Source of the DNA: Candidatus Omnitrophota bacterium | GTDB lineage: Bacteria; Omnitrophota; Gorgyraeia; Gygaellales; Profunditerraquicolaceae | Length of the DNA stretch: 64,000 nucleotides | Direction: 5' to 3' | Assembly (NCBI GenBank): GCA_025453395.1 | Contig: JALOQK010000001.1 | Span: 166,313-230,312 of the forward strand | Part shown: positions 869 to 36,457 of the stretch, in pieces | How the letters are laid out: each line of letters begins with the position of its first letter | Numbering within the stretch: position 1 is the first letter of the stretch | The notes under the pieces: generated by a model | Databases searched by the model: none | The model's input: the letters and a program-made list of their open reading frames with translations, nothing else | What the model was told of the DNA's origin: nothing | Made by a program: the position numbers and the translations under genes

Positions 869-877
869 TTTACAAAA

Positions 878-7723: not shown

Positions 7724-7737
7724 AAATATCCCGTTCT

Positions 7738-7832: not shown

Positions 7833-7836
7833 TCTC

Positions 7837-10291: not shown

Positions 10292-10301
10292 AAAAAACCT
10301 T

Positions 10302-10336: not shown

Positions 10337-10359
10337 AATACATAAAACTAGAAATCGCA

Positions 10360-10432
10360 ACCCGACCCCCCTACCCTAAACCCGCAACTCACCCCCACCC
10401 CAGACCCATAACCCGCGCCCCACTACTCACCC
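10360..10432. other. About 73 bp C-rich tract, G-rich on the pst mRNA strand, in the pstS-pstC intergenic region
   Basis: cccgacccccctaccctaaacccgcaactcacccccaccccagacccataacccgcgccccactactcaccc. On the transcribed strand this gives G-tracts of 3-7 G (GGGTAGGGGGGTCGGG etc.), a potential G-quadruplex. Confidence 0.5.
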
Positions 10433-10433
10433 T

Positions 10434-12012: not shown

Positions 12013-12025
12013 TGTGAACCTCCTT

Positions 12026-13006
12026 CTAGATTTTGACAAAATTAATTATTATTTTCAAAATGATAAAACTCATTACCCCGGAAACAAAAGGTGTTGCCAG
12101 CCAGCAGAAAATTATATCTTTAATGATCCTAAAATTAAGCACCCTTATTCCTTTTACCAGGCCCACTCCAAAAATCGCCCCCACAATGGAGTGGCTGGTA
12201 GAAACAGGAATACCAAAAATTGTATAGATATGCACATTAATAGCGCTTGCTAACTGGGCGGAAAAAGCCATTAGCGGCAATAGCCGGGTAATTTCACTTC
12301 CAATAGTTTCAATGACCTTATAACCCCAGGTCACAATGCCTAAAATTATGGCGACACCCCCAATGACCACACTTACCCCGGGAGTTAAAATCCCGCTTCC
12401 GGCAATAACTCCGGTTGCGTTTGCCACATCATTAGCCCCCCAGGTAAAAGCCACATAACAGCCTCCCATAGTAACAAGGGCCGACATCACCGGCTTCACA
12501 AACCTTCTGGGGACTATCCGGTAGAAGATATTTTTAAACACGCTATAGAAAATATACCCCAATACTACAGCCCCCAAAGGGGTAAATACCCAACAAACAA
12601 AGATATCCTGCAATGCTTTCCATTTTATGGGAGCACCAACCGCTAATCCCGCCCCGGCAACCGCCCCGACGATAGAATGGCTTGTGGAAATAGGCATCTT
12701 CCAGTAAGTAGCAAGCGCCACCCAGCAACAGGCCGCAAAACAGGCCACAAGCGCTATGTATAAGGAAATATTCTTGGGCAATTGATCCAAAGGGACGATC
12801 CCTCGCCCAATGGTTTTCACAACCGCTGAACCCTGCAGAAGAGCGCCTAAAAAGCCGAATATACAAATTAAAATTATTGCCTGGCGAAGCGATAAAACAC
12901 GAGAGCCGACTGCCACGCCTAAAGAATTGGCTGCGTCATTAGCCCCGATAGACCAGCCAACCGCTAGCCCCATAAGAATGGTAAAACCGATAAGAAGTAT
13001 GTTCAT
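12026..13006 (-). CDS. pitA: Inorganic phosphate transporter, PiT family
   Basis: Duplicated GANDAANSLG and GANDVANATG motifs within a 326 aa polytopic protein. Confidence 0.85.
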   Translation of the reverse strand: MNILLIGFTILMGLAVGWSIGANDAANSLGVAVGSRVLSLRQAIILICIFGFLGALLQGSAVVKTIGRGIVPLDQLPKNISLYIALVACFAACCWVALATYWKMPISTSHSIVGAVAGAGLAVGAPIKWKALQDIFVCWVFTPLGAVVLGYIFYSVFKNIFYRIVPRRFVKPVMSALVTMGGCYVAFTWGANDVANATGVIAGSGILTPGVSVVIGGVAIILGIVTWGYKVIETIGSEITRLLPLMAFSAQLASAINVHIYTIFGIPVSTSHSIVGAIFGVGLVKGIRVLNFRIIKDIIFCWLATPFVSGVMSFIILKIIINFVKI

Positions 13007-20311: not shown

Positions 20312-21499
20312 TTATCTTCTGATGATATCCCCGACTTGGGGCGTATAAGAGTCGTTTAACATGTCGCAAGCGGCTATCGTTTTACTTAAACGGATCACTT
20401 CCAAGACAGAAACTACCTGGTCGTTTTTATAAATATGCAGTTTATCCCCCACTGCCAAACCAGAATTATCTCCAACATCCACAAGGACAAAATTATTATC
20501 TTTGTTCACCGAGATTATTTTTCCTAAACCACCGGGGCTTATCAGGCCCTTGGAAAAAACGGGGTCTTGCTTGCCAACCGCTTCTGAAGGGCGCACAATA
20601 ATGGGAGGCAGCTCTACATTCTCTTTATTCTCTTTTACTTTCTCCGTGCCGTCAACAGTAAAACCTGCGCCCGCAACATTAGTTGACTGAACTGACTTAT
20701 CTTTTACTAAAATATCCATTTCTTTTACTTTCTTCTCAAGCTCTAAATTAATATCCTGAAGCTTCTTGATCTTCTTTTCAAGATCAATCTTGCGGGTGCT
20801 TAGCTGTTGAAGCTGACGGCGCAAGACTTCATTATCGGTCTTCAAAGACTTTGCCGAATCATTGATCTGCAGTTTATCATTCTTCTCGCCCACCAACTCC
20901 AGAGCGATATTATCAACCACCTTCTTATTATAGATAATCTGTTTTTGCGCGTATTCCAGCTGGCGCGCCAGATCCTGCTTTTCCTGGTTTAAACTGTTGA
21001 TCTCCAGCTCGAGAGCGTTTTTCTCACGCTGTAATTGTTCATTGTTTATCTTTAAGTCACGGGAGTCGCTGCGTAAATTTTCCAGCTGCATGGAAATAGC
21101 ATTCTTATCCCTTAAGACGCCTGCCCAATAATCATCATTTGGCGCCTGCGTCTGTTCTCGAGTAACAGGCGCGCTTGCGCTGCTTTCTTGCAATTCTTTG
21201 ATCTTACTGGTAAGCTTCTCCCTGGCCTGCATTAAATCCTCATAGCGTTTTTTAAGCTCATCGCGCTCATCGGTTATCTTGCTTAATTTTGAATTAATGG
21301 AAGAATACTTTGATTCTAGAGTATCGTAATCCTTTTTAAGAGAATTCACCCTGTCGGTTAAGTCTTTATTTTTTACTGACAGGCCTTCTTTCTCTTGTTC
21401 CAGAAGCTGATTAGCGGTAAAGGTCTGGAAAAGCACAAAACCGCAAACAAGAAGAAGGGCCACCAAACTTAAGATTACTATCTTTACTTTTTGTTCCAT
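20312..21499 (-). CDS. Membrane-anchored coiled-coil protein with a C-terminal beta-rich domain, function unknown
   Basis: N-terminal TM helix, ~250 aa of heptad-rich coiled coil (LKKRYEDLMQAREKLTSKIKELQ...), and a C-terminal ~90 aa globular domain (GKIISVNKDNNFVLVDVGDNSGLAVGDKLHIY). Confidence 0.45.
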   Translation of the reverse strand: MEQKVKIVILSLVALLLVCGFVLFQTFTANQLLEQEKEGLSVKNKDLTDRVNSLKKDYDTLESKYSSINSKLSKITDERDELKKRYEDLMQAREKLTSKIKELQESSASAPVTREQTQAPNDDYWAGVLRDKNAISMQLENLRSDSRDLKINNEQLQREKNALELEINSLNQEKQDLARQLEYAQKQIIYNKKVVDNIALELVGEKNDKLQINDSAKSLKTDNEVLRRQLQQLSTRKIDLEKKIKKLQDINLELEKKVKEMDILVKDKSVQSTNVAGAGFTVDGTEKVKENKENVELPPIIVRPSEAVGKQDPVFSKGLISPGGLGKIISVNKDNNFVLVDVGDNSGLAVGDKLHIYKNDQVVSVLEVIRLSKTIAACDMLNDSYTPQVGDIIRR

Positions 21500-23098: not shown

Positions 23099-23767
23099 AT
23101 GCCCTTAATAAACCTTTTGCCCAGTGAATTAAGGAAAGCAAAAACAGCCGCCCAGAAAACAACGAAAGCTGCTTCCGGGATCCCCAAGCCGACTATACAT
23201 ATTAAAGTAGACATTTCTTTCTTAAAACCTGTCCTTTGGGTGATACCGGTATTGCTGGCAGTAACTGGCGCTGTCTATGCCCAAGCCTATTTTAAAGAGC
23301 AAAAACTTAAACACCTTGAAGAAAAACTGGGAAACTCCAAAGCGATCTCCAAGAAAATAGCGCAATTAAAACAGGATATAGAAAAGAACGCGCAGGCCTA
23401 TTCTTTTCTGGGCCGGGCAGTAAACAACACAAAATGGTCAGAAAAACTTGAGCGCCTTACTCAAATAATCCCTCCTCAGATATGGTTATCCAAATTAACT
23501 GTTGATTCTTCGACAATTAAGAATTCTCCCGCGGCTAAAGAAAACAGGGATGCGCCTAAGAAATCTGAAAAGATCGTCCTTGAGGGAAGCGCGACCAGCG
23601 TAATAGAAGCAGAAATTATTTCCGCTATAACAAACTTCATAGAAAAAATTAAAGCAAGCCCTGATTTTAATCAAACATTCGCTGTCTTTAAGATGGGGCA
23701 GCTGCAATCAGTCAAAAAAGGCAATTTAACGGTAATGAATTTCACTATTACCTGCTCGTCAGAATAA
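23099..23767 (+). CDS. pilN: Type IV pilus assembly protein PilN
   Basis: N-terminus MPLINLLPSELRK (the PilN INLLP motif), a single TM helix, then a coiled-coil periplasmic region. Confidence 0.7.
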   Translation: MPLINLLPSELRKAKTAAQKTTKAASGIPKPTIHIKVDISFLKPVLWVIPVLLAVTGAVYAQAYFKEQKLKHLEEKLGNSKAISKKIAQLKQDIEKNAQAYSFLGRAVNNTKWSEKLERLTQIIPPQIWLSKLTVDSSTIKNSPAAKENRDAPKKSEKIVLEGSATSVIEAEIISAITNFIEKIKASPDFNQTFAVFKMGQLQSVKKGNLTVMNFTITCSSE

Positions 23768-23768
23768 T

Positions 23769-24344
23769 ATGCAAAGTATAAACGAAATCTTAAATAATCC
23801 CAAGGTCCAGAAAATAATAATCATTATTGTTGCTGCGATATTAGTGGCTGCATATTACCCATTCGCATTATCATTGTGGAATAAAAACAAGGCCATTGAT
23901 GAAAAGATTTCTCTGTCCTTACAACAAATAAATTTAGGCAGCCACATCAACGTTAACCAGCAAGCCACAGAAGAAGAATTTAAAAAATCGCAAAAACAAA
24001 TCTTGCAGTTGGCGGATAAATTCTTCATAAGCGCCGAAGAAATATTTGTTGTGTTAAATAAGATCGCCGCAGCAACAAAGATAAGCTTTAAAAACATCGA
24101 GCCTTTTGAAAGGCAAAAAATGGAAATCCCCAACAGGGATGATATGTATATTGATAATTTACCGGTTAAAGTGGATATTGTCTGCAATTATCATCAATTA
24201 ATCACGCTGTTGGACAAAATAGAAAAAACCGATAAATTCATAAGCGTTGAAGACATAAGGATCCGGGGGGTGCCTTCTAATATATGGGAACATGAGGTGC
24301 AAATTAACCTAAAAGTCCCCCTATTGGTGGCTAATGCTAAATAA
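23769..24344 (+). CDS. pilO: Type IV pilus assembly protein PilO
   Basis: 191 aa with an N-terminal TM helix, a coiled coil and a C-terminal ferredoxin-like region. It sits between pilN and pilP. Confidence 0.6.
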   Translation: MQSINEILNNPKVQKIIIIIVAAILVAAYYPFALSLWNKNKAIDEKISLSLQQINLGSHINVNQQATEEEFKKSQKQILQLADKFFISAEEIFVVLNKIAAATKISFKNIEPFERQKMEIPNRDDMYIDNLPVKVDIVCNYHQLITLLDKIEKTDKFISVEDIRIRGVPSNIWEHEVQINLKVPLLVANAK

Positions 24345-24741
24345 AATGCGCCATAAAATTCATAACATGAAAGCTTTCTTGGTTTTCTTATCCGCTATAA
24401 ATATATTTATAATTGCATTTGCACAAACAAAAGAAATCAATTATAATAGCGCTGAAGAAAGCCGTGATCCTTTTATCCCTTTAGTGGATAATAACGGGAA
24501 CTTGCGCAAAGAGTTTAAGCGGCCGGTTGATGAAGCAAGCATCCCAAAAGTAAACTTAATGGGGATAAGCGACCTCTCCGGAACATTTTACGCGATAATT
24601 GACGGAGAAATGGTCAAAGAAGCAGACACGATCAAAGAGTTAAAAATCGAGAAAATATATTTTGACCGGGTAATTGTAAGTTACGCCGATAAAATATTTG
24701 AATTAAAGTGGGAACAGGAGAAAAATGCAGGGAAAAAATAG
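24334..24741 (+). CDS. pilP: Type IV pilus assembly lipoprotein PilP
   Basis: 135 aa with a signal peptide, an RDPFIPL motif (the conserved PilP RDPF) and a C-terminal beta domain. It lies directly before the secretin gene. Confidence 0.6.
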   Translation: MLNKMRHKIHNMKAFLVFLSAINIFIIAFAQTKEINYNSAEESRDPFIPLVDNNGNLRKEFKRPVDEASIPKVNLMGISDLSGTFYAIIDGEMVKEADTIKELKIEKIYFDRVIVSYADKIFELKWEQEKNAGKK

Positions 24742-26170
24742 TGTCAGCTATCAGCTTTCAGCTTTCAGCTTTCAGCTAAAAACTAAAAAAACAATCGCTA
24801 TAATTACCCTGATCCTATTCTTTATGGGAATGTGCCCGTCTCTTTTACTTTCCCAAGACCAGCAAGAAACAAAAACCGCATCTAATCTTATAAGCCTGAA
24901 TTTGCGCGATGTGAATATTGAAGACGCGCTTAAAGTGATCGCCCAGGCAAGCGGGATGAATGTCATCTTGGATAAAGACGTCAAAGCGACAGTAAATATC
25001 AACCTTAAAAACGTTACCTGGAATACCGCGCTTGACAATATCCTCAAAACCAACCAATTAACCTATAAAATACAGGAAAACATTATCCGGGTGATGACCT
25101 TAGATTCTTTGAAAAAAGAGGACGACACCCTTCCCCTGTCTTTAAAAATCATTTCGCTTAATTTTGCCAGGGCCGATGAAATACAAAAATCATTAACCAA
25201 AATGCTTTCTCCCCGCGGCAATATTGAAATAAACGCCTCCACAAATTCTCTGATCATAAGCGATTCGCAAGAAACATTCCCCAAGCTTGAAGAAGTAATC
25301 TCCAAGCTTGACACCCGCATCCCGCAGGTCATGGTAGAAACCCTGATCGTCAGTTTTAAAGGCAGCAACACCTACCGACAAGGCGTGGATATGACCCTTA
25401 TGAGCAACAAACACGGCACAGACCGCCAATATTGGCAATATCCTGTGGGCGATCAAAACGGAATGGCCGGAGTTATGGATTTTTCCTATGCCAAGCCTAT
25501 TCTATCAGGATTAGACCTAGCCAGCACCTTAAGGCTTTTTTCCGAAGATGCCCGGGTAAACATCCTGGCCAATCCTAAAGTAATGACCCTGGATAACAAA
25601 GAAGCCTCCATAGAAATTCTTGAACAAGTCCCTTATCAATCTCAATCTACCACAGAACAAGGAACCGTGGTCAGCACCTCATTTAAAGATGCTGGCTTAA
25701 AAATATTGGTTACCCCGCATATTACAAAAGATCAGTTTATCTCTTTAGCGGTAAAAGGCGAACACAGTTATATCGCAGCCTACGTTAATAACCAGCCGCA
25801 GATAGATGCCAGAAAAATAGAAACAAATTTCATGCTAAAAGACGGAGAAGTAGCGGTAATCGGTGGTTTACGTAAAAAAGACAAGACTTACACCGTAACT
25901 AAAGTCCCTGTCTTAGGGGATATCCCTTTTATCGGAAAGATTTTATTCAGTAAAATAGTCAAAACAGACGTAGATAATGAATTAATAATTTTTATCTCCC
26001 CGCACATCATGGAAACCAACCTAGCAAGCTCTTCCGAGCAGATAAATTACAAAGGCGCACATGAAGAATTAGTAGGCCTGACAAACAAGAAAAAAGAAGC
26101 ATTAAGAAATCAGGCTATTGAAAATTATTTTCAAACGCAGCAACCGCCTTCCCCAAGAAAGAAGCAATGA
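24725..26170 (+). CDS. pilQ: Type IV pilus secretin PilQ (short form, no AMIN domains)
   Basis: Secretin N-domain (NINLKNVTWNTALDNILKTNQLTYKIQENIIRV) and C-terminal secretin domain (GEVAVIGGLRKKDKTYTVTKVPVLGDIPFIGKLF). The first ~17 codons are the TCAGCTN heptamer repeat. Confidence 0.8.
   Translation: MQGKNSVSYQLSAFSFQLKTKKTIAIITLILFFMGMCPSLLLSQDQQETKTASNLISLNLRDVNIEDALKVIAQASGMNVILDKDVKATVNINLKNVTWNTALDNILKTNQLTYKIQENIIRVMTLDSLKKEDDTLPLSLKIISLNFARADEIQKSLTKMLSPRGNIEINASTNSLIISDSQETFPKLEEVISKLDTRIPQVMVETLIVSFKGSNTYRQGVDMTLMSNKHGTDRQYWQYPVGDQNGMAGVMDFSYAKPILSGLDLASTLRLFSEDARVNILANPKVMTLDNKEASIEILEQVPYQSQSTTEQGTVVSTSFKDAGLKILVTPHITKDQFISLAVKGEHSYIAAYVNNQPQIDARKIETNFMLKDGEVAVIGGLRKKDKTYTVTKVPVLGDIPFIGKILFSKIVKTDVDNELIIFISPHIMETNLASSSEQINYKGAHEELVGLTNKKKEALRNQAIENYFQTQQPPSPRKKQ
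24744..24777. repeat. Heptamer minisatellite (TCAGCTN)x5, second locus
   Basis: tcagcta tcagctt tcagctt tcagctt tcagcta, followed by aaaactaaaaaaacaatcgcta. The flank is similar to the 10302 locus. It is translated as SYQLSAFSFQL at the pilQ N-terminus. Confidence 0.7.
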
Positions 26171-27189
26171 AAATGAAATTCCCTTTCTTCTCCAAAAAGC
26201 CCAGTAAGTCAATCGGCCTGGATATCGGAAGCTCCCAGCTAAAACTTATTGAGCTTGACGCGACAAAAAACTCGGCACAGGTTACATCCATGGCCATGCA
26301 GGATATCCGCCAGTCTAAAAACATATCCGATGAAATAAAAAAGATCTTTAACGATAATAAGATCTCCTCAAGCAAGGTCAACGTGGCTGTTTCCGGAGAT
26401 GGAGTGATCGCTCGGTATTTATCCATGCCCAAGATGAGTTATGATGAATTAAAAAAAGCCATAAGTTACGAGCTTGAGGAACATATACCCTTTAAGCCGG
26501 AAGAAGTATACACGGATTTCTTTATTACCGGAGAGGACACAACAGCTAAGAATAAAATGCATGTCTTTTTGGTAGCCACAAAAAAAGAGCTGTTGGACAA
26601 GTATATTTCAATGCTGGAAAAAGCGGAATTAACGCCCAAGATAATAACTATGGACGCGTTGTGTTTGATGAATATATTCTGCTTTAACTATCCTGATAAA
26701 ATAAAATCTAACGTTACAGTGCTGAATATAGGCGAGAGAACCACTAATCTTATTATCACCAGGGACAAAACTCCCTATTTTGTGCGCGATACCCGCTTTG
26801 GGGGAGAGACTGTTACCTCCATTATCCAGAATAAACTCAATATCGCTAAGGATGCCGCCGAAGAAATAAAATTAAAATTAAGTTCGCAGGATATAGAATT
26901 GGCCAAAACCATAAAAACCACACTAGCCACGCTTCTAAATGAAATATTTGTCTCTATTGATTTTTACGAAAACTTAACCGAGAAAAAGATTGATGAGATT
27001 TATCTGTCCGGTGGGTCATGCTTACTCTATGGCCTTAAGGAATTCCTAAGCGGATATTTGGGCATCCAAATCAACCCTCTTGACCCCTTCAAAAATATCA
27101 CCTTTGCGCCTTCCATAGCAAAAGAGAAGATCGCTGAACAAGCGCCTTTCATGGCAGTTGCCGCGGGTTTAGCCCTAGAAGAAGCATAA
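26167..27189 (+). CDS. pilM: Type IV pilus assembly ATPase-like protein PilM (actin fold)
   Basis: N-terminus SIGLDIGSSQLKLIELD and an actin-like ATPase fold. It overlaps the pilQ stop by 4 nt and is last in the operon, a non-canonical order. Confidence 0.75.
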   Translation: MKMKFPFFSKKPSKSIGLDIGSSQLKLIELDATKNSAQVTSMAMQDIRQSKNISDEIKKIFNDNKISSSKVNVAVSGDGVIARYLSMPKMSYDELKKAISYELEEHIPFKPEEVYTDFFITGEDTTAKNKMHVFLVATKKELLDKYISMLEKAELTPKIITMDALCLMNIFCFNYPDKIKSNVTVLNIGERTTNLIITRDKTPYFVRDTRFGGETVTSIIQNKLNIAKDAAEEIKLKLSSQDIELAKTIKTTLATLLNEIFVSIDFYENLTEKKIDEIYLSGGSCLLYGLKEFLSGYLGIQINPLDPFKNITFAPSIAKEKIAEQAPFMAVAAGLALEEA

Positions 27190-27216
27190 TCCCAAACTTT
27201 ATAAAACGCAGGTTGA

Positions 27217-28431
27217 TTATTTATTTATAAGGGTGGTTAACTGGAATATCGGCATGAACATCGCCACCACAATAAAACCGATAGTTACCCCAAGAAAGGA
27301 AATTATCAAAGGTTCGATCATAGAGGTCATTTCAGACATAGAATCATTGACTTGCGTCTCGTAATAATCTGAAATCTTAGTAAGCATTCTTTCTAATTCG
27401 CCTGTCTGCTCTCCCACGGCTATCATCTTAACTACAAAAGGCGGGAATTTTCCGGTCTCTTCCATCGGCTCTGAAATATTCTCTCCCGCTCGCATGTTTG
27501 ACCTTATCTGCTCGGTAGCCATTTCAATTATTTTGTTTCCTGAAACCTTACCCGCTATTTCAAATGCCTCTAAAATACTTACCCCGCTTTTTACCAATGT
27601 TGCTAATGTGCGGGTAAAGCGACTAATGCAGATTTTACTTATAATCACCCCGAATATAGGCATTTTAAGCTTAAAACTGTCAAAATTTATCCTGCCTGAA
27701 GCAGAGCTGATATACCTGTTCAAGGCCACAATCCCCACAATTACAAGAATAAATAAAACAGGAAAATACCTAACGGATAGGTCGCTGGCTGTAATTAAAA
27801 ATTGGGTAGGAGCCGGAAGGTTTCCTCCCAGGCTAGTAAAGATATTCTTAAAAGTCGGTACCACCTTGATCATCAAGAAAGCTATAATAATGCCCGCCAT
27901 GCCTACAACCAGGGTAGGATAAGTCATGCTGGATTTTACTTTACGTGAAAGGTTTTCCGAACGCTCCAGATAATCTGCGACCCTCTCCAATATTTCATTA
28001 AGGCTGCCGCTTGATTCGCCGGCCTTGATCATGTTTGTGAATATCCCCGGAAATGCCTTGGGATATTTGGCGAAAGAGGCGGAAAGGCTGTTTCCAGACT
28101 CAATATCATTCTTAATGTTCACAATTATCTCTTTTAACTTAGGATTCTCCACTTGATCATGGAGCACATTTAAAGCTGTGATCAGGGATACTCCGGAATC
28201 AATAAGAGTAGCCAGCTGTCGGGAAAAAACAACCAAATCCATGGATTTTATCTTTGCCCCACCAAATGATAGGGAGCTAAATTTCTTTTGCCCCTCGCCT
28301 TCAAAAAGATCAATAATGGTCAAGCCCCGTTTCTTAAGCTCTTTAACGGCAGAGGATTTTTCTTGAGCTTCAATAACCCCGGTTATGGATTGGGCCTTTT
28401 GGTCGCGCGCAGTATAAGTAAATTTTGCCAT
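27217..28431 (-). CDS. pilC: Type IV pilus inner-membrane platform protein PilC (GspF family)
   Basis: 404 aa with duplicated GspF domains and 3 TM segments. The N-terminus MAKFTYTARD... is typical of PilC. Confidence 0.85.
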   Translation of the reverse strand: MAKFTYTARDQKAQSITGVIEAQEKSSAVKELKKRGLTIIDLFEGEGQKKFSSLSFGGAKIKSMDLVVFSRQLATLIDSGVSLITALNVLHDQVENPKLKEIIVNIKNDIESGNSLSASFAKYPKAFPGIFTNMIKAGESSGSLNEILERVADYLERSENLSRKVKSSMTYPTLVVGMAGIIIAFLMIKVVPTFKNIFTSLGGNLPAPTQFLITASDLSVRYFPVLFILVIVGIVALNRYISSASGRINFDSFKLKMPIFGVIISKICISRFTRTLATLVKSGVSILEAFEIAGKVSGNKIIEMATEQIRSNMRAGENISEPMEETGKFPPFVVKMIAVGEQTGELERMLTKISDYYETQVNDSMSEMTSMIEPLIISFLGVTIGFIVVAMFMPIFQLTTLINK

Positions 28432-28445
28432 ATGCGGTTAAAGCC

Positions 28446-28913
28446 TTATTTGTAATATTCTTTTATCACCTTTAGAATCTGTTCCTTGGTTGCGATCATT
28501 GAAACCACCTTGCATCTTGAGCTTTTCTCAACCTCAATTACGGCTTCTTTATCTAAAGGATTGCCCATAGCAACCACAAGGACATTGCCTATTTTCTCCA
28601 AAGGGACGCAAAAATGTTTAGAAGCTATTTCTTTAGGGATAAGCTTTACCAAGTCTTTGGTTATTTTATATTTTTCAATGGGCATATAGATGATCTCCGA
28701 CTGATTAGCAAGCGCCATGCTTAAGGCCTCCTGTGAAATAAACCCCATCTCCACAAGCACCTCTCCCAACATGCCGCCTTTTTGCCTTTGCGCGATAAGC
28801 GCCTGATCAAGCTTTTCAGAAGATATGACCCCCTTATTAACTAAAAGCTGCCCTAAAAGGCTGGTCTTAGCGACAATGCGCTGGGAATGCTCTTGGCTCT
28901 TCCTTTTATACAT
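28446..28913 (-). CDS. Stand-alone T2SSE_N / MshEN-like domain protein (putative c-di-GMP receptor)
   Basis: 155 aa. LLGQLLVNKGVISSEKLDQALIAQRQKGGMLGEVLVEMGFISQEAL is the MshEN-type N-terminal domain found on GspE/PilB/MshE ATPases. Here it is unfused. Confidence 0.6.
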   Translation of the reverse strand: MYKRKSQEHSQRIVAKTSLLGQLLVNKGVISSEKLDQALIAQRQKGGMLGEVLVEMGFISQEALSMALANQSEIIYMPIEKYKITKDLVKLIPKEIASKHFCVPLEKIGNVLVVAMGNPLDKEAVIEVEKSSRCKVVSMIATKEQILKVIKEYYK

Positions 28914-28986
28914 TATTCATCCCTTAAGATTTTACCTCTATAATATTATCTTATTTTGCCAAATATTGCAACACTATTCAACCGTT

Positions 28987-31900
28987 TCACGGCTTCTGCT
29001 CTTTTAGCAGCTCTGAAAGTACCTGCTTAGCAAAACTATCAGGCCTTTCCTGAAGCACATGGATAGCCTGTGAGCGGATATGTCCGGATTCATCCGAAGA
29101 ACAAGACGCGATAAGCTGGGCGCTTCTTAACCCCCGCATTTTGCTTAAAACAAAAATGGCTTTTCTTTTTATATTAATGTCGCTATGATTTAAAGCTGGG
29201 ACCAAGGCATCTAAGGCCTCCTCTCTATCCATCGCCCCCACAAGCTCAATTAAATTTTTTACTACCGCGATATGCACATCATTAAAACGCTCTGCGGGGA
29301 GAAAACGGCACACCAGGTCCACCGGCATAGATGCCAATATCTTCCCAATGGTATGACGGCGTAAATAAGCCTCAAAATATTTGCCTTCCGGAACACCTTT
29401 TTCACATAATGCTTCGTTAACGAGAAAACCTGCGGTGTAATCCTTAAGAAGCATAACCGGCTCTTGTATATCTTGCCAGTCTTTATTAGCGTCTATTCTT
29501 TCCAAAAGCTGCTGAACAAATCTCTCAGCAATAGGCTGGATGCTTTTCTGGGCGTCTTTTGCCGTTTTTTTATCTTCAGATAATAAAGACAACACCTGCT
29601 CCAGCAGCATCGCGTCTTTTTTATCTATTGCTATCTTAAGCAGCTTATCAAGGATGGGTTTTATTATTTCAACTATGAATTTCTTATTATCCTTAAAGTT
29701 TACATTAACCGCGGCAAAACAATCTTTAAGCAATTCTATTTCTGACCTATCAATTAAAATATCAAGCAGGTCTTTGACAAAGCTTAGGAACAGGCTTTCC
29801 GAAAGCGTCTTTTCATTAAACAGGCTTATTATCTTATCAAGCAGAATCTTAACCTTATCTCCGGATTTACTATCTAACAATTGTTTGACCAACAACGCAA
29901 TATCAAAAAGGCAAAGGATTTTTTTTAATTTACTGCCCGGCCAACTTAAGAAAGTATCCAATTTATCTCTTGGGTCTGTTTTTGCCCATAAAGACGGATC
30001 CAGAAACCAGTCGCATTCTTTTTGATTTGCCCCCAGATTTAAGAGTTTTCCCCTTATTACCGGAAGCAGATTTTCTTTTTGCTCCACAGAATTAATCAAA
30101 CGCTTCACTGTTTCATGGAATTTTCTTATATCTGTTTGCGGATTGGCATACTGCTTAATAAGCGTGTCCGTAATAACATCATCGGGCATTTTAAAACTTA
30201 ATTCCTTAACAATATCAACTCCTGCCGAGAAAGAAGCAGGCTTAGCCGAAGGGCCATTTGCTTCTTGCGTAACGTTTGGCCCGGATAAAATATTGGCCCT
30301 TAATGTCGGCTCCATGGAAAGAAGGGTCTTGGCCAGGCTTTCTTTATACTGCGGCCAATTCTTGTCCTGACCTAAGAATTTTTTGCCCATACGCTGAATG
30401 CTCTCGGACATGATCTGCGCTTTTACCTCTTCCTTGTCCCTGCCGGTCTTTGCGCTAACCTGATCCCCAATCTTATCTAACGCCTGCATGATATCTTGCG
30501 CGTGATTGGTAATCTTACCCTGGGGGTCAGTAGCCAAAGGCATTTTCCCCAAAAGATAGTCAATAAGCATAACTTCTTGCAGATTGTCCCTTTCGTGGAT
30601 ACGCTTGCTGGAAAGGTTATATATGGTTTCATGTATTTGTATATGGGTGAATTTACCCTCCCGCATAAGATGCGCTGCTGTTTCTTCGCCCTCGCGGGAG
30701 CCTTTACTTAATAATTCTATAAATAACGTAACTTCTTCAAGGGAAACTTCCTTAGCAAAAGAGGCATTCTCAATATTGACATCCTTAAAGAATTTCACCA
30801 GAGTATTAACAAAAAGGCCTGACAATTCTTTACCTATTCTGCGGTTATTAACGATAATACTCTGCCCTACGACAGCTATGCTTAAAACCCCCGCCTCATT
30901 AAAGATAACTGCCATCTTTTCAAAAAGGTTTTTTATGGAGCGCTGGACCATTTCATTTTGCGCGGGATACAAAATATAATTTTCAACCGCGATGCAAATA
31001 TTGCGTATAAAAGCGGGGATTTCCTGCCATGCCTTTTTGCTTAAAACAACAAGCATCTTATCCTGCACGGCATCCTTTAACAATGAATGGGCGTAATCTA
31101 TGGTGCGGTCATAAAAGATCCCCTTACCTTCGTCAATAATCTTCGCGTACTGTTTGGCGCGCAGGTCATCTTCAGCTTTCTTAAAGTGATAATACAATTC
31201 TCCGGCTATGCCGTTTATCTTATCGGGGTTTAGCTTTTCGGTAACCTTCCCCAAACGCGAATGCAAATCGCGCTCTTTAGCGCCTCCTAAAGCATCCAGA
31301 ATAACATTTCTTATTTTATTGGTAAAAAAACTAAATTCGTCTTTTCCTTGGACGCCTTTTTCATAAACTAAGCCTATTTTCTTGGCAGCCTCCACAAGAT
31401 CCAAAACATAACCCCTGTCTTCACTGTCGATCTTCTGCAGCAAATCTACCTGGAAATCTTCTCCGATGACAGCCGCCTTGGCAATCATATTGCGGGTGTC
31501 TTCATCCAAATCCTCAATACGGGAAATAATAGCTTTTTCTATAGAGCCTGGCAAATCGGCTTCATTGATATCCTTATAGGCCCAAGCGCCGGCGGAATAA
31601 TATATAAACCCTTTTTCAACCATATACTTAATAGACTCTTCAATAAAAAGCGGATTTCCCGCTGTTTTATTGTATAAAAGATCATAAAAACTATCCGGCA
31701 TGTTAAGGCCTTCAATAATGGACTCTACCATTTCTTGTGTTTTAGCTCTATCTAAACCGCTTAAAGACAATAGTTCAAACTGCCCGCCGGAGGCTTTAGT
31801 TTCCAGCAAGCCCTTAAGCGCGGAATCGCCAATTTGGGGAATAACCAGTTCTTCATTAGAAAACGCCCCGATAATAAGCGCCGGAAACCTTATTTTTTCC

Positions 31901-33009
31901 TGAATCATGGACGTAACAACTTGTAAACTATCCGGATCCATATACTGCATATCATCAAAAATAAAACACATCCTTCTGTCTTTGGAAATATTTATAATGA
32001 ATTTAACTAACGCTTGCGACAATAATTCTTTCTGGCCGGCCTGTTCATCATGTCCGATGTCATTTACAGGATGCGCTTTAATCAGTTCGGATAATCCGGG
32101 TATAAAATTAAATAAATAATCTCTTTCCTGCTGGGTAAGCCCTGCTAATGCGTCCGGGGTGAGAACTTCTATATTTGTCAGAAAACTATCTACGGCCTGA
32201 CCAATGGCGTGGAACGGCTGATGCAGCATCTTTTCTACGAGCCGCGCGCTTAAAATCCCTGGATTTACTGATATTGTTGAGGTGGCAGCTAATTTCTCAA
32301 AATTAGCCAAAAGCCTGCTTTTCCCGATACCAGAAGGGCCCTCTATTAAAAGCATGCGCTGCCCGCTTTGAGGCAGAGTATCCAAGGCGTAAATGAAACT
32401 ATTGGTTTCTTTTTCCCGGTTGATAAAAACAGGCGCGGGAAACCTTTCCATAAGGTTCTTTTTCCAAAAGGCTTCGCCGTCAATATCAGAAACAACCGCC
32501 ATGCAGTTCTTGCCTTTTTCCTTGGCCACATACAAGGCTTGATCCGCTAACTTTATAAGCCCAAGGTGTGTTTTGGCATGCGTTGGGAATCCGGCAATTC
32601 CAACGCTTACGGTAATATGGATATCTCTTCCGGAGGACGGCTCTTTAAACCTGTGTTCCGAGATCTTAGAGATAAGCCGTTGGGCGATGTTTTTAACAAT
32701 CTGCTCTTCAACATTAGGAAGGATCACTGTAAATTCATCGCCAGCGTATCTTATCCTTTTATCTACGGCCTTAGTATTATCTTTGATAATTCGGGAAAGC
32801 TCTTTTAAAAGCTGATCTCCTGTTAAGTGGCCATAGGTATCATTGATCATCTTAAAGCCGTCAACATCCAGCATAAACAGCCATATCTTATATCCTGCGC
32901 CCTCGGCTTCCTGTAAAGCTACCGGAAGATATGAATACAGATAGCGGCGGTTAAAAAATCCGGTAAGATCGTCTATATACGCTAAATTTTCATTGCTTTG
33001 GGAGTGCAT
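28987..33009 (-). CDS. GGDEF diguanylate cyclase fused to an AAA/STAND-type NTPase and C-terminal HEAT repeats
   Basis: N-terminal GGDEF domain (DDLTGFFNRRY ... RYAGDEFTVILP, an AGDEF active-site variant). It is followed by Walker A LLIEGPSGIGKSRLL and Walker B MCFIFDDMQYMD (AAA_16/STAND-like), a long helical region, and HEAT/PBS repeats (ALVPALNHSDINIKRKAIFVLSKM, DESGHIRSQAIHVLQE). Confidence 0.75.
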   Translation of the reverse strand: MHSQSNENLAYIDDLTGFFNRRYLYSYLPVALQEAEGAGYKIWLFMLDVDGFKMINDTYGHLTGDQLLKELSRIIKDNTKAVDKRIRYAGDEFTVILPNVEEQIVKNIAQRLISKISEHRFKEPSSGRDIHITVSVGIAGFPTHAKTHLGLIKLADQALYVAKEKGKNCMAVVSDIDGEAFWKKNLMERFPAPVFINREKETNSFIYALDTLPQSGQRMLLIEGPSGIGKSRLLANFEKLAATSTISVNPGILSARLVEKMLHQPFHAIGQAVDSFLTNIEVLTPDALAGLTQQERDYLFNFIPGLSELIKAHPVNDIGHDEQAGQKELLSQALVKFIINISKDRRMCFIFDDMQYMDPDSLQVVTSMIQEKIRFPALIIGAFSNEELVIPQIGDSALKGLLETKASGGQFELLSLSGLDRAKTQEMVESIIEGLNMPDSFYDLLYNKTAGNPLFIEESIKYMVEKGFIYYSAGAWAYKDINEADLPGSIEKAIISRIEDLDEDTRNMIAKAAVIGEDFQVDLLQKIDSEDRGYVLDLVEAAKKIGLVYEKGVQGKDEFSFFTNKIRNVILDALGGAKERDLHSRLGKVTEKLNPDKINGIAGELYYHFKKAEDDLRAKQYAKIIDEGKGIFYDRTIDYAHSLLKDAVQDKMLVVLSKKAWQEIPAFIRNICIAVENYILYPAQNEMVQRSIKNLFEKMAVIFNEAGVLSIAVVGQSIIVNNRRIGKELSGLFVNTLVKFFKDVNIENASFAKEVSLEEVTLFIELLSKGSREGEETAAHLMREGKFTHIQIHETIYNLSSKRIHERDNLQEVMLIDYLLGKMPLATDPQGKITNHAQDIMQALDKIGDQVSAKTGRDKEEVKAQIMSESIQRMGKKFLGQDKNWPQYKESLAKTLLSMEPTLRANILSGPNVTQEANGPSAKPASFSAGVDIVKELSFKMPDDVITDTLIKQYANPQTDIRKFHETVKRLINSVEQKENLLPVIRGKLLNLGANQKECDWFLDPSLWAKTDPRDKLDTFLSWPGSKLKKILCLFDIALLVKQLLDSKSGDKVKILLDKIISLFNEKTLSESLFLSFVKDLLDILIDRSEIELLKDCFAAVNVNFKDNKKFIVEIIKPILDKLLKIAIDKKDAMLLEQVLSLLSEDKKTAKDAQKSIQPIAERFVQQLLERIDANKDWQDIQEPVMLLKDYTAGFLVNEALCEKGVPEGKYFEAYLRRHTIGKILASMPVDLVCRFLPAERFNDVHIAVVKNLIELVGAMDREEALDALVPALNHSDINIKRKAIFVLSKMRGLRSAQLIASCSSDESGHIRSQAIHVLQERPDSFAKQVLSELLKEQKP

Positions 33010-33015
33010 ATTTTC

Positions 33016-34725
33016 TTAGTCCTTAGCTGTTACCCGATATACCTCTTCAAGGGTAGTAACCCCATTAAACACCTTTTCAAACCCGTCCTGACGCAAGGTA
33101 ATAAGCTTTCCGTTTTTTATCGCCTCATCCCTTACTTGCTCTAAAGGCACCTCTCTTATGACTTGGCTTTTAATATAATCGTCAACATTAAACGCTTCTA
33201 AAAGCGCGATCCTGCCCTTATATCCGGTATTTAAACAAGAATTGCATCCGCGGCCATGATAAAACTTTCCAGAACCTGTAACCTTAAGGCCCAATTCTTT
33301 GATCATAAATTCAGGAGCGTCAGTAAATTCCTCCTTGCAATTATCGCAGATCTTACGGCAGAGCCTCTGGGCGCAAACAAGAATAAGTGAAGACGCCACC
33401 AAATACCTCTCTACCCCCATATCAATAAGCCGGGCAAAGGCGCTTACTGAATCATTGGTATGAAGGGTGCTTAATATAAGTTGACCTATAAGCGAAGCCT
33501 TAATAGCGATATCCGCTGTTTCAGTATCGCGGATTTCTCCGATCATGATAATATCCGGGCTTTGCCTTAATACCCCGCGCAGCGCGGTGGCAAAGGTAAA
33601 ATCTATATCCGATCGTATATGCGTCTGGCCAATACCATCCAACTGATATTCAACCGGGTCCTCAATTGTAACCACATGGCGTTCCATAGTATTTAATTCT
33701 TTTAAAACCGAATAAAGCGTAGTAGATTTACCGCTTCCCGTGGGCCCGGTAATCAGGATCATCCCGTGGTCTTTAGACAAAGCTTCCTGCAAAAGCCTCA
33801 AAGACTGCTCTGAAAATCCCAGATCCGTTAAGCTGACCATTGCCTTAGCTTTATCCAGGATCCTTAAAACGAATTTTTCTCCGTAAATAGTGGGAAGCGA
33901 AGAAACACGGAAATCAATCTGTCTGCCATAGGCCACCAATGGGAACCTTCCGTCTTGAGGAAGATAAAATTTAGTAATATCAAGATTGGAAAGTATTTTT
34001 ATGCGCGCGGCAATGCCGCGTTGCACCTTTTTGGGCAGGCCATAAGCTTTGTGCATTATCCCGTCTATGCGGTAGCGCACAGTCAAATCTTCTTCTGTTG
34101 GTTCAAGATGTATATCTGACGCCCTCTGCTGAATAGCTTCGCCTATAATCCGGTTGACCGCCTCTACTATCGGGCCTTTCTGGCTTTCCTGAATAAGATC
34201 CGCGGAATCGCTATCATCCAATTCTTCAGTCCTTATGATCTGCATAGACTTTTCTTTTTCATCGTAAGCTAAAATTTCCGGAAGGCTTTGCAGCTGAGTG
34301 TAGAAATTATTAATGCAGTCATTGACCGCCTTTTCCTTAGCCAAAACCTGTTTTATTTCACACTTCAAAGAAAGGCGCAGGTTATCCAAAGTAATAATAT
34401 CCATGGGCTCCGCGATAGCCACAAGAAGGGTATCCCCTATCTTGTAAAGCGGCAGAAAAGAATATTTACGCACTATTTCTTCGGGAATAGAAGCTACAAG
34501 CCGCGGGTCAAGCTCATATTTGTAAGGATCAATAAAAGGCACATTCAAATGATACGCCACTAAAGAAAGAAGGTCTTCCTCATTAATAAAACCTTCAGAG
34601 ATAAGCACTTCTTTTATTTCCTTGCCGGTCTTTCTTTGAATAGAAATTGCCTTCTCTATATCTTCGGTGGTTATCTTATTGGCATCGGTTAAGATCTTGA
34701 TAAAATTTAATTTGGTTTTGCCCAT
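33016..34725 (-). CDS. pilB: Type IV pilus assembly ATPase PilB/GspE family
   Basis: T2SSE_N N-terminal domain, Walker A ILITGPTGSGKSTTLYS, a tetracysteine motif (CRKICDNC...GRGCNSC), and a 569 aa length that is PilB-like rather than PilT. Confidence 0.85.
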   Translation of the reverse strand: MGKTKLNFIKILTDANKITTEDIEKAISIQRKTGKEIKEVLISEGFINEEDLLSLVAYHLNVPFIDPYKYELDPRLVASIPEEIVRKYSFLPLYKIGDTLLVAIAEPMDIITLDNLRLSLKCEIKQVLAKEKAVNDCINNFYTQLQSLPEILAYDEKEKSMQIIRTEELDDSDSADLIQESQKGPIVEAVNRIIGEAIQQRASDIHLEPTEEDLTVRYRIDGIMHKAYGLPKKVQRGIAARIKILSNLDITKFYLPQDGRFPLVAYGRQIDFRVSSLPTIYGEKFVLRILDKAKAMVSLTDLGFSEQSLRLLQEALSKDHGMILITGPTGSGKSTTLYSVLKELNTMERHVVTIEDPVEYQLDGIGQTHIRSDIDFTFATALRGVLRQSPDIIMIGEIRDTETADIAIKASLIGQLILSTLHTNDSVSAFARLIDMGVERYLVASSLILVCAQRLCRKICDNCKEEFTDAPEFMIKELGLKVTGSGKFYHGRGCNSCLNTGYKGRIALLEAFNVDDYIKSQVIREVPLEQVRDEAIKNGKLITLRQDGFEKVFNGVTTLEEVYRVTAKD

Positions 34726-34730
34726 ATTTT

Positions 34731-36404
34731 CTAATCCGCAGGGGTTACCCGCAAGACCTCTTCTATAGTTATTATGCCGGCGCGGGCTAATTCCTGCGCC
34801 TCTTCCCTTAAAGTGCGCATGCCTTCCTTGCGGGCTATTTCTTTAATCACCTTCTCTTCAATATTCTTGCCCACGATAGCATCTTTAATCACGGCTGTTA
34901 GATGTAAAACCTCGGCCAATAAAATCCGCCCCTTATATCCTGTACCCATGCATTCTTTACAGCCTTTCCCGCGAAAATACGGCTGCGATGGAACAGGCTC
35001 TTTGCAATGTACGCAGATCCTGCGCGCTAATCTTTGTGAAACAATGGCGATCAATGAAGCGTTAATCAAGAATGACTCCACCCCCATATCCAACAGGCGC
35101 ACTACCGACCCGGCAGCAGTAGTAGTATGAAGCGTGCTTAAAACCAAATGCCCGGTTAACGCCGCTTTAATAGCGATATCTACAGTCTCAAAATCTCGGA
35201 TCTCGCCGATCATGATAATATCTGGGTCTTGCCTTAGAATAGAACGTAGGCAACGGCTAAAGTTCAGCCCAGTTTTGATATTAATAGACACCTGGTTAAT
35301 CCCTTTTAGCTGATATTCAACAGGATCTTCAACGGTAATAATATTTTTTTCTGGGGTATGCACATATTTTAATAAAGAATACAAAGTAGAGGTTTTGCCT
35401 GAACCTGTGGGCCCACAAACCAAAAGCATGCCGTGGGGCAATTGGGCGGCTTTTTTAAGCCCGGATATAACCGCATCTGTTAAGCCTAACTTATTTAAAT
35501 CCAATAACCCTAAAGATTTATCCAATATCCTGATCGCCACTTTCTCGCCCAATATCGTTGGGTATGATGAAACACGAAAATCAACTTCCTTGTCTTTTCT
35601 TCTAATCTTAAACTGGCCATCTTGAGGGAAACGGTGCTCCGCTATATCCAGATCCGATATGACCTTAATGCGCGACACAATAAAAGGATGAAAAGCCCGC
35701 GGCAGGCTTTCTATATGCCGGTATACCCCATCAATACGGAAACGTATCCTAGTTGCCCCTTCCAAAGGCTCAATCAACACATCGCTTGCCTTTGCGTCAA
35801 TAGCTTTATCCATAATAAAATTTGTCGCTTTAACAATGGGCATCTCCTGGGTAATCTGCGCCAGGTCTTGCGCGTCAAACTCACCTCTTGTCTTAATGGA
35901 AATATCCGAAAGGCTATCTCCTAAGATATCTTCCATTTCCATATTTGCTTCTTCGGGCTTATCTCCCAGCTGAACGCCGTAATAATGATGCAATAATTTA
36001 TCCATTTCAGCGCCAGCTATAACAACTGGATTGATTTTATGGCCTGATGCCTCTTGAATATCCTCTAAATCAACAACGGTGCTGAGATTTGCTATAGCTA
36101 AAAGAATCCCGTTTTCAGTCTTTATTAAGGGGAAAATACGGTATTTGCGCGCATTCTGCTCTGATACGAAACTTAATGTTTCGGCTCGGATAGTAAGCTG
36201 GGAAATGTCAAATTCGGGAACGGGGCAATTGGATTTGATAAAACCTTCAAGCTTCTGCTTATTGATCAGAATATCCTCTGTTAAAACCAGGCTTAAAGGC
36301 TTATTATTGGCAGCCTGCAGAGAAAAAACCTCGCCAACCTGGGAGGCCTTTAACAACCCATTCTGGGCGAGAAGCTGGATGATCTGACGCTTGGGATAAA
36401 TCAT
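34731..36404 (-). CDS. Second PilB/GspE family secretion ATPase paralog
   Basis: Walker A LLVCGPTGSGKTSTLYS, a tetracysteine motif (CVHCKEP...GKGCKEC) and an N-terminal T2SSE_N domain, 557 aa. Confidence 0.85.
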   Translation of the reverse strand: MIYPKRQIIQLLAQNGLLKASQVGEVFSLQAANNKPLSLVLTEDILINKQKLEGFIKSNCPVPEFDISQLTIRAETLSFVSEQNARKYRIFPLIKTENGILLAIANLSTVVDLEDIQEASGHKINPVVIAGAEMDKLLHHYYGVQLGDKPEEANMEMEDILGDSLSDISIKTRGEFDAQDLAQITQEMPIVKATNFIMDKAIDAKASDVLIEPLEGATRIRFRIDGVYRHIESLPRAFHPFIVSRIKVISDLDIAEHRFPQDGQFKIRRKDKEVDFRVSSYPTILGEKVAIRILDKSLGLLDLNKLGLTDAVISGLKKAAQLPHGMLLVCGPTGSGKTSTLYSLLKYVHTPEKNIITVEDPVEYQLKGINQVSINIKTGLNFSRCLRSILRQDPDIIMIGEIRDFETVDIAIKAALTGHLVLSTLHTTTAAGSVVRLLDMGVESFLINASLIAIVSQRLARRICVHCKEPVPSQPYFRGKGCKECMGTGYKGRILLAEVLHLTAVIKDAIVGKNIEEKVIKEIARKEGMRTLREEAQELARAGIITIEEVLRVTPAD

Positions 36405-36428: not shown

Positions 36429-36457
36429 ATTATAACCAATCACGAGGGGATAGTCAA
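36429..36457 (-). promoter_or_regulatory. Sigma70 consensus promoter (TTGACT-17 nt-TATAAT) driving the pilB paralogs
   Basis: The minus strand reads cTTGACTatcccctcgtgattggtTATAATttttt, with the -10 ending ~25 nt upstream of the 36404 ATG. There is no obvious Shine-Dalgarno sequence. Confidence 0.5.

Follow-up and report, generated by a model that had tools for sequence, protein, structure and literature searches.

A GGDEF-STAND protein paired with a free-standing MshEN domain in a pilus operon of Candidatus Omnitrophota: a possible split of c-di-GMP control from the pilus motor

The control of type IV pili (T4P) by cyclic di-GMP (c-di-GMP) through an MshEN domain fused to the motor ATPase is well established, and the synthesis of c-di-GMP requires that two GTP-loaded GGDEF domains be brought together, an upstream stalk helix being the usual element by which sensory domains control the cyclases. 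STANDs are known for all-or-none, oligomerization-based decisions in immunity and cell death, and fusions of AAA_16 with cyclases are represented by the mycobacterial cyclase-ATPase-TPR proteins. In a 64-kb window of DNA (i.e., the whole stretch analyzed here) from a metagenome-assembled genome (MAG) of Candidatus Omnitrophota, elements of all these systems are found within a single pilus operon, namely a protein of 1340 amino acids (hereafter “the giant”), in which a GGDEF domain is joined to a STAND module, an α/β domain and an ARM/HEAT solenoid, and a free-standing MshEN protein of 155 amino acids. The interpretation that we favor, and that we hold to be somewhat better than an even proposition, is that this operon encodes a pilus motor whose control by c-di-GMP has been split, with a STAND-gated local cyclase feeding a dedicated MshEN receptor that acts in trans.

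In MshEN, c-di-GMP is held by a pair of 24-residue motifs with five residues linking them, the backbone amide of the glycine at motif position 3 (G3) contacting the guanine, the leucines stacking on the base and the final glutamine contacting ribose and phosphate (PMC5013675). Of the changes made in NfrB, that of G3 did the most damage (PMC8669469), and the loss of binding by XpsE has been ascribed to changes that include G11V and G40L (PMC5013675). GSPII-B of PilF, which has Lys and Leu at the Arg positions, binds the ligand with a dissociation constant of 6 nM, and the first position of the consensus has been widened to (R/K/L) (PMC11731258). As to the cyclases, VCA0965 of Vibrio cholerae carries AGDEF at its A-site and makes c-di-GMP both in vivo and in vitro (PMC3974145). 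Omnitrophota are uncultured nanobacteria whose T4P are thought to mediate attachment to host or prey (PMC10066038), and c-di-GMP receives no mention in two Omnitrophota genome papers that treat type IVa pili, glycosidases and giant open reading frames (ORFs) as attachment or predation gear.

A conserved gene pair and its MshEN protein

The strongest evidence for function comes from the conservation of the giant and the free MshEN protein as a unit across Omnitrophota, a unit that had been missed in a preliminary description of the window. Context look-ups and a metagenome scan provided 20 Omnitrophota-type loci whose DNA extends past the giant on its downstream side; in 19 of them (16 distinct at 90% identity) the next gene encodes a free MshEN of 150–160 amino acids, the intergenic gap being often between −8 and +4 nucleotides (nt), and the pair always lies within a pilus cluster having PilB-type ATPases and PilC. 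The free MshEN proteins of these loci display a median identity of 41%, going down to 26%. The scan of metagenome contigs, made with a family-specific sub-alignment (A2), yielded 18 loci; a genome scan with the full-length alignment of the giant returned mostly generic GGDEF matches along with at least five useful loci from outside Omnitrophota. In the window, the pair belongs to a tightly packed operon of five minus-strand genes, PilB2-PilB1-giant-MshEN-PilC, separated by 5, 6, 73 and 14 nt, respectively.

The unit of the free MshEN protein that is predicted to bind c-di-GMP consists of motif I, LLGQLLVNKGVISSEKLDQALIAQ, the spacer RQKGG and motif II, MLGEVLVEMGFISQEALSMALANQ, and the α/β C-subdomain is also present, Pfam MshEN (PF05157) matching residues 76–154 with E = 3.2e-13. 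The protein aligns over its full length to the MshEN of PilF, of the PilBs of Myxococcus xanthus and Geobacter and of V. cholerae MshE (5HTL), so that the alignment over both binding motifs, on which the preliminary description had made its claim of an MshEN domain depend, is indeed obtained. Compared with the consensus (R/K/L)LGxx(L/V/I)(L/V/I)xxG(L/V/I)(L/V/I)xxxxLxxxLxxQ, repeated twice with five residues in between, both 24-residue motifs are recognizable, motif II deviating by a Met at position 1 and a Phe at position 11; thus, the leading Arg residues are replaced by Leu in motif I and by Met in motif II, and L, F, Q, K or I occupy this position in the orthologues. Among the 23 orthologues, which were taken from the loci (a word-index homologue search had given two proteins), G21, L35, G50, L68 and Q71 are invariant, and these columns correspond to both G3 positions, to one Leu per motif and to the Gln that ends motif II. 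The NCBIfam model NF053729 (c-di-GMP_motif) scores 67.5 bits on the window protein, its cutoff being 38, and matches 23/23 orthologues at E ≤ 1e-9. Likewise, a relaxed motif, taken from Wang et al. with the first position dropped, is found at least once in all 23 and twice in 16 of them, both motifs being matched in the window protein. The binding of c-di-GMP by the free MshEN is therefore, on the strength of its residues, a well-founded prediction. Roughly 35 of the best 150 cluster representatives matching this protein are single-domain proteins of 144–190 amino acids, two of which adjoin T2SSE ATPases on contigs of 2–3 kb; no characterized stand-alone MshEN protein was found in the literature, though such proteins are numerous in sequence databases.

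The two ATPases of the operon are, by their sequences, PilB/GspE-type enzymes and PilB-like in their working; Pfam T2SSE matches PilB1 with E = 6.7e-122 and PilB2 with E = 1.5e-127, and Walker A, GEIRD, the His box and two CxxC are intact in both. They stand below strict equivalog status in TIGR02538, scoring 588.9 (PilB1) and 539.7 bits (PilB2) in end-to-end alignments against a cutoff of 675.65. The preliminary description had both ATPases keep an N-terminal T2SSE_N domain, and this is true of the C-subdomain, which Pfam MshEN matches at residues 60–144 of PilB1 (E = 2.8e-14) and 62–146 of PilB2 (E = 2.9e-10), and untrue of the ligand residues of the preceding four-helix bundle, which are lost. 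Since PF05157 represents only the C-subdomain and not the 53-residue bundle, these matches are uninformative on c-di-GMP binding. Both ATPases have another residue in place of G3 in each of the two motifs and have lost the Gln that ends motif II, so that neither presents the two-motif signature; in PilB1 the motifs read NFI... (I) and EIK...YH (II), and the MshEN_N fold has probably been retained with its key ligand residues gone. The same three positions are lost in 24/24 PilB N-termini from related loci, none of which matches the relaxed motif, nor do PilB1 and PilB2, and in five loci belonging to one clade the four-helix bundle is wholly absent from PilB. That the PilBs have lost the capacity to bind c-di-GMP is thus, like the binding by the free protein, a well-founded prediction, and the earlier proposal of three receptor types reading the signal fails as far as the PilBs are concerned (0/24 N-termini with the relaxed motif vs 23/23 free MshEN proteins). 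A sensor that has moved off the ATPase fits these residue patterns better than a sensor that has been added.

As to the origin of this sensor, PilB1 and PilB2 represent two conserved paralogue lineages in the tree of the window's clade, and in five loci a PilB-like ATPase of ~410 amino acids lacking the N-domain directly follows the free MshEN gene after 2–71 nt, the neighboring full-length PilB having lost the four-helix bundle. Because this N-domain-less ATPase lies directly behind the free MshEN, the arrangement suggests that the latter arose by fission of a third PilB into a sensor and a motor.

Domain structure of the giant

Residues 1–175 of the giant align without gaps and over their full length to the active cyclases TM1788, DosC, PleD and WspR. 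The A-site reads RYAGDEF and thus departs from the strict signature GG(D/E)EF, AGDEF being found in 30/30 homologues, which share 19–45% identity and derive from unlabelled contigs as well as from Omnitrophota, NC10 and Planctomycetota. In this same alignment D48, N56, D65, R87, A89–F93 and K163 are invariant, so that the metal (D48, D91), guanine (N56, D65) and phosphate/transition-state (K163, the Lys following α4) residues are all present, together with the Arg preceding the A-site; we take the PleD equivalents of these catalytic positions to be D327, E370, N335, D344 and K442. Deviation from the strict signature does not exclude activity, since the Ala variant VCA0965 is active (PMC3974145). 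Furthermore, the fixed Ala looks like a trait of the family rather than a sign of decay, because every other catalytic residue is kept, and the GGDEF domain thereby withstands the objection, anticipated in the preliminary description, that residues beyond the A-for-G change might be lacking. The possibility that the giant is a Hypr-GGDEF enzyme, i.e., a cyclic GMP-AMP (cGAMP) synthase, was rejected: such enzymes are defined by a Ser at the position of D65, and the invariance of this specificity Asp argues that the product is c-di-GMP and not cGAMP. The RxxD inhibitory site (I-site), which is not needed for catalysis, reads KAVD in the window giant and KxxD across its close clade; RxxD is present in the more distant Omnitrophota homologues and is lost in NC10. 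Taken at the level of sequence, these data indicate that the giant probably makes c-di-GMP. The DxLT motif that marks the start of the GGDEF domain is at residues 13–16 with no stalk helix upstream, and control must therefore come from the C-terminal side.

What follows the cyclase domain is an NTPase, in which Pfam AAA_16 covers residues 195–372 (E = 1.1e-13), Walker A reads GPSGIGKS, Walker B reads FIFDD, and G227, G229, K230 and D352 are invariant in the homologues; the NCBIfam model TIGR03903 (TOMM kinase/cyclase AAA_16 proteins) matches this region with E = 2.4e-24. A profile search of the PDB with the whole giant returned GGDEF and alphaRep/HEAT matches and none to STANDs, so that the assignment required a structure model. 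The AlphaFold2 (AF2) model of residues 176–700, built on a 17-sequence alignment, has a predicted local distance difference test score (pLDDT) of 82.4 and a predicted template modeling score (pTM) of 0.75, and its top Foldseek matches in the PDB, all with probability 1.00, are the STAND-TPR protein 6mfv (E = 5e-10), CED-4, Apaf-1, MalT (8bob), Avs3 and NLRC4. Judged by the fold of this model, the NTPase is a genuine STAND: it combines a P-loop with Walker A and B, a nucleotide-binding domain (NBD) followed by helical (HD) and winged-helix (WHD) domains, an N-terminal effector and C-terminal repeats, the order effector, nucleotide-binding oligomerization domain (NOD) and sensor being that of other STANDs.

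Behind the STAND module the modeled secondary structure delineates an α/β domain that matches no Pfam family even at E = 10; the fold search with the model of residues 650–1340 (pLDDT 78.9) was dominated by solenoid matches. This domain is a candidate for the part of the STAND that binds a ligand. A tandem duplication of it, with NxRLYPxGSQL occurring twice, is seen in the homologues from NC10 and Planctomycetota (P0088 and P0112). In the all-helical C-terminal part HEAT_2 is recognized by Pfam at residues 1266–1337 (E = 1.4e-12), alphaRep matches occur as well, and the best Foldseek matches are armadillo and HEAT proteins. Both the AAA_16/STAND class and the HEAT repeats, which had been named from the sequence alone, are thus borne out by Pfam and by the fold match, the repeats being part of an ARM/HEAT solenoid.

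Gene organization and other features of the window

All the ORFs of the preliminary description were found where it had placed them, and each domain that it named was recovered by Pfam. The positions of the features discussed in this article are collected in Table 1.

Table 1. Positions of the genes, domains and sites, referred to the window or, where a locus is named, to that locus
Feature	Position	Strand	Remarks
PilB2, PilB-type ATPase, 557 aa	34731-36404	-	First gene of the operon; Pfam T2SSE, MshEN
PilB1, PilB-type ATPase, 569 aa	33016-34725	-	Pfam T2SSE, MshEN
Giant, GGDEF-STAND-α/β-ARM/HEAT, 1340 aa	28987-33009	-	Proposed signal-gated diguanylate cyclase
GGDEF domain of the giant, aa 1-175	32485-33009	-	Pfam GGDEF, residues 10-168, E 3.5e-42
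STAND NTPase module of the giant, aa ~195-640	31090-32427	-	P-loop NBD, then helical and winged-helix domains
α/β domain of the giant, aa ~650-795	30625-31062	-	Secondary structure of the model; invariant N-x3-YP
All-helical ARM/HEAT solenoid of the giant, aa ~836-1340	28990-30504	-	Presumed sensor/docking domain
Free-standing MshEN protein, 155 aa	28446-28913	-	Proposed trans-acting c-di-GMP receptor
Predicted c-di-GMP-binding unit of the free MshEN, 53 residues, aa 19-71	28701-28859	-	Motif I, spacer, motif II
PilC platform protein, 404 aa	27217-28431	-	Last gene of the operon; Pfam T2SSF, E 8.3e-69
Convergent pilus operon: PilN-like, PilO-like, small T2SSB-like, secretin, PilM	23099-27189	+	Pfam
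PilM	26167-27189	+	Last gene of the convergent pilus operon
Sigma-70-like promoter match TTGACT-17-TATAAT, 11/12	36429-36457	-	Best of the region; upstream of PilB2, 25 nt from its start
Tandem PilZ protein, 235 aa	46345-47052	-	Pfam PilZ, E 5.9e-19, two stretches
N-domain-less PilB-like ATPases of one Omnitrophota clade	L007 14597-15829; L103 6702-7940; L105 4814-6052; L106 4738-5991; L107 10047-11288		Follow the free MshEN
Region of the second free MshEN of one clade	L003 4644-6546; L097 2770-4625; L100 2665-4567; L102 2670-4572

The promoter-like match ahead of PilB2 is to be regarded as weak evidence, since the total of such sites does not exceed the shuffled expectation. The plus-strand pilus operon runs toward pilC, their stop codons being separated by only 27 nt, and has the unusual order pilN-pilO-small protein-secretin-pilM, in which pilM stands at the end rather than at the start. 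A strict prepilin regular expression applied to the six-frame translation detected no pilin gene in the 64-kb window, and no PilT gene was found within it. Base composition is uniform across the region.

One clade possesses a second free MshEN with intact motifs, located upstream of both PilBs and directly after the gene of a membrane HAMP-GAF-GGDEF protein. The GGDEF domain of this protein is degenerate, reading SDSEF or GYSDF with the metal and guanine residues lost, and the idea of a second cyclase-receptor pair was dropped on account of this A-site.

The tandem PilZ protein that the preliminary description had enlisted as a further receptor of the module is present, its domain 2 having the canonical RVFAR and DISAKG, and its domain 1 having RQLTR but DLNLKG (S → N); the receptor pattern RxxxR plus (D/N)xSxxG is accordingly found in domain 2. 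Its link to the module, however, was one of proximity only: the gene lies outside the pilus cluster, 10 kb off and beyond glycosidase and sugar-transport genes. At this distance and beside an ORF of 5544 amino acids, the protein may serve a different output. This ORF (47330–63964, minus strand) shows only scattered Pfam matches (HAD hydrolase, GNAT, a methyltransferase fragment) and, besides adjoining the PilZ gene, lies downstream of genes for GH2-like glycosidases, for an MFS transporter and for an ABC transporter of sugars; giant ORFs with pilus/secretion genes and GH2 enzymes on their flanks have been reported as a pattern in Omnitrophota (bioRxiv 10.64898/2026.06.07.730766).

Elsewhere in the window, the large subunit of ribonucleotide reductase (15606–19130, minus strand, 1174 amino acids) contains an intein with a LAGLIDADG homing endonuclease (Pfam Intein_splicing and LAGLIDADG_3), which is probably lacking from the homologue of the relative L001, annotated as 762 amino acids long. 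In both organisms the pilus cluster has beside it a ROK-family gene, a coiled-coil protein gene and a LacI-family regulator gene, the coiled-coil protein of the window (20312–21499, minus strand, 395 amino acids) belonging to no real family. A GAF-ANTAR protein (2375–3094, minus strand) is a putative RNA-binding antiterminator regulator, and phosphate uptake is represented by two separate systems, Pst with PhoU (6239–11303) and Pit with a PhoU-like protein (11344–13006). The a and b subunits of an F-type ATP synthase are encoded at the edge of the window (374–1885, minus strand), ~21 kb from the pilus cluster; a non-respiratory F-type ATPase has been reported near the type IVa pilus genes of Omnitrophota (PMC10066038).

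Proposed mechanism, alternatives and known systems

The domain identities, the STAND fold, the conserved catalytic and ligand residues, the gene pair and the degenerate PilB motifs are the observations from which we infer a cyclase activity, its triggering by oligomerization, the binding of c-di-GMP, an interaction in trans and an effect on the pilus that could have either sign. A signal, be it a ligand or a protein partner, would engage the α/β domain or the ARM/HEAT solenoid of the giant; the STAND module would then oligomerize, presumably in a nucleotide-dependent manner, pairing two GTP-loaded GGDEF domains and giving rise to c-di-GMP locally. Oligomerization is suggested as the trigger by the position of the GGDEF domain at the extreme N-terminus without a stalk helix. 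The free MshEN would bind this c-di-GMP through its two arginine-free motifs, of the high-affinity type of PilF GSPII-B, and in its liganded form would act in trans on the pilus machine, its likely targets being PilB1 and PilB2 or else PilM or PilC. Indeed, with the PilB motifs degenerate or missing, any control would have to act in trans. The C-subdomain of MshEN is the counterpart of the N1 domain of GspE, which docks on GspL, a homologue of PilM/PilN, so that the free MshEN could either complement the sensor-less PilBs or compete for PilM. The outcome would be an altered pilus assembly, which could mean activation or inhibition, or else the selection of one PilB over the other. A bolder version, which we consider fairly unlikely, is that Omnitrophota deploy their pili by an NLR-like logic, the solenoid or the α/β domain sensing a host or prey ligand, a signalosome oligomerizing, its cyclases being activated by proximity and the high-affinity, arginine-free MshEN licensing or selecting one of two sensor-less PilBs.

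Several observations weigh against the split control proposed here. The pairing has one exception, a short contig (L104, 1–2367) on which a prepilin-like gene (MKKSFTLIEM...) takes the place of MshEN after the giant, and in at least five loci, from NC10, Planctomycetota, Gemmatimonadota and a deltaproteobacterial MAG, no MshEN or pilus gene lies within reach of the giant, so that its function is not intrinsically pilus-bound. No phosphodiesterase was found in the window, and the Arg of the I-site has become Lys in the window's clade. As for the receptor, most residues at motif position 1 fall outside the published sets [RKPN] and (R/K/L), and conformity with the motif is not sufficient for binding, since GSPII-A of PilF does not bind even with its consensus restored (PMC12002112). 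The free MshEN proteins form one clade with a bootstrap of only 54/100. Finally, NF053729 matches 14/24 PilB N-termini at the same threshold at which it matches all the free proteins, and PilB1, with 38.6 bits, falls right at the cutoff of 38; because this model separates the two groups poorly, their distinction rests on the key residues, and a reading at the level of hidden Markov models would count some PilBs as binders.

The last point leads to the alternative that the PilB N-termini, the free MshEN and PilZ all read the signal, the free MshEN being an extra receptor or buffer and not a replacement. This would account for the Pfam MshEN matches on both PilBs, for the NF053729 scores of PilB1 (38.6–41.9 bits), for the matches of this model to 14/24 PilB N-termini, and for the canonical motifs in domain 2 of PilZ; yet the Pfam matches concern the non-binding C-subdomain, NF053729 does not match PilB2, the motif Gly is kept in no PilB N-terminus, where the relaxed motif is likewise never found, and five loci have a PilB without the bundle, so that we judge this alternative unlikely. 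A similarly small likelihood is given to the view that the GGDEF domain does not function as a cyclase, that the giant is a scaffold sensing GTP or c-di-GMP or another kind of STAND regulator, and that MshEN is mainly an adaptor competing for the docking site on PilM or PilC, whether or not it binds a nucleotide, for which the correspondence of its C-subdomain to the GspL-docking N1 domain of GspE would qualify it. The departure of the A-site from GG(D/E)EF would agree with such a role, as would the second free MshEN, adjoining as it does a degenerate GGDEF protein; many AGDEF domains, e.g., that of NbdA, are termed degenerate in a preprint (bioRxiv 10.64898/2026.03.20.713172). The activity of AGDEF in VCA0965 (PMC3974145) speaks against it, however, as do the invariance of all catalytic residues across phyla, which would be unexpected in a degenerate receptor domain, and the fact that conservation within the free MshEN is highest where the ligand is contacted.

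Pili being a common phage receptor, one may also ask whether the giant is a defense-type STAND of the Avs/NLR kind, which upon sensing a phage or foreign protein would shut down the pili by a burst of c-di-GMP. Avs and NLR proteins have the same succession of N-terminal effector, NOD and repeat sensor, the fold matches include Avs3, and GGDEF domains are rare signal generators in NTP-dependent conflict systems (PMC7159879). PADLOC, however, gave only a weak HEAT-ARM_XIII match (E = 0.0013) and nothing for the MshEN protein, the base composition shows no discontinuity, and the gene of the giant keeps a fixed position in a core pilus operon, with synteny down to 25–30% identity, which implies vertical inheritance rather than a mobile defense island; we thus regard a defense function as very unlikely. 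The least probable explanation, to which we attach hardly any credence, is that the free MshEN has no function and was merely left behind by the fission of a PilB gene: the N-domain-less ATPase found 2–71 nt behind it in five loci is what such an event would leave, but an intact ORF of 150–160 amino acids in 16 distinct lineages, with ligand residues invariant down to 26% identity, indicates purifying selection on a function.

If the split control is real, its novelty would lie in three traits, namely a cyclase placed under a STAND switch, with the GGDEF domain at the extreme N-terminus and beyond the usual control by a stalk helix; a receptor separated from the ATPase, the stand-alone MshEN being kept while the ATPases lose their ligand residues; and a fixed giant-MshEN gene pair co-inherited across the Omnitrophota phylum. 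Should the NLR-like version prove true, it would make the giant the first diguanylate cyclase under STAND control and its partner the first MshEN receptor acting in trans. Since databases already label the giant “diguanylate cyclase”, it is not the gene that is new but its reading as part of a module; no description of a GGDEF-STAND fusion was found in the literature, what comes nearest being a mention of GGDEF domains that occur rarely in conflict systems of the vWA-MoxR kind (PMC7159879). A dedicated switch located in the pilus operon would offer a concrete handle on how Omnitrophota decide to attach, and its parts are small or modular enough for heterologous expression, which makes the hypothesis directly testable.

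Of the systems described so far, the closest on the receptor side are MshE of V. cholerae, PilB of M. xanthus and Geobacter and PilF of Thermus thermophilus, which have the same two-subdomain MshEN, with 24-residue motifs and a five-residue spacer, on a T4P motor (PMC5013675). In all of them MshEN is fused to the ATPase, whereas here the competent MshEN is a separate protein of 155 amino acids and the ATPase motifs are degenerate or missing; the arginine-free motif of the high-affinity GSPII-B of PilF resembles that of the free protein (PMC11731258). The DgcJ-NfrB system of Escherichia coli likewise has a specific cyclase as the local source for a specific MshEN effector (PMC8669469), and the NfrB model gives a score on the free MshEN as well; there, however, MshEN forms a fusion with a glycosyltransferase, DgcJ belongs to the conventional membrane cyclases and not to the STANDs, and the genes of receptor and cyclase do not form a fixed pair. 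In the FimX-PilZ-PilB system of Xanthomonas, as outlined in PMC12943098, a receptor outside PilB likewise acts on PilB by protein contacts, but this receptor is a degenerate EAL protein with a PilZ adaptor, and neither MshEN nor STAND nor dedicated cyclase is involved.

On the side of the switch, Apaf-1, CED-4, MalT, Avs and the AAA_16 fusions of TIGR03903 share with the giant the NBD-HD-WHD fold and the order effector-NOD-repeat, the giant differing from these STANDs in having a GGDEF effector and, as its sensor, an ARM/HEAT solenoid behind an α/β domain. Finally, VCA0965 has, like the giant, an AGDEF with the other catalytic residues intact (PMC3974145); its domain context is unrelated, and the AGDEF of the giant's family, unlike that of VCA0965, is not sporadic but invariant across phyla.

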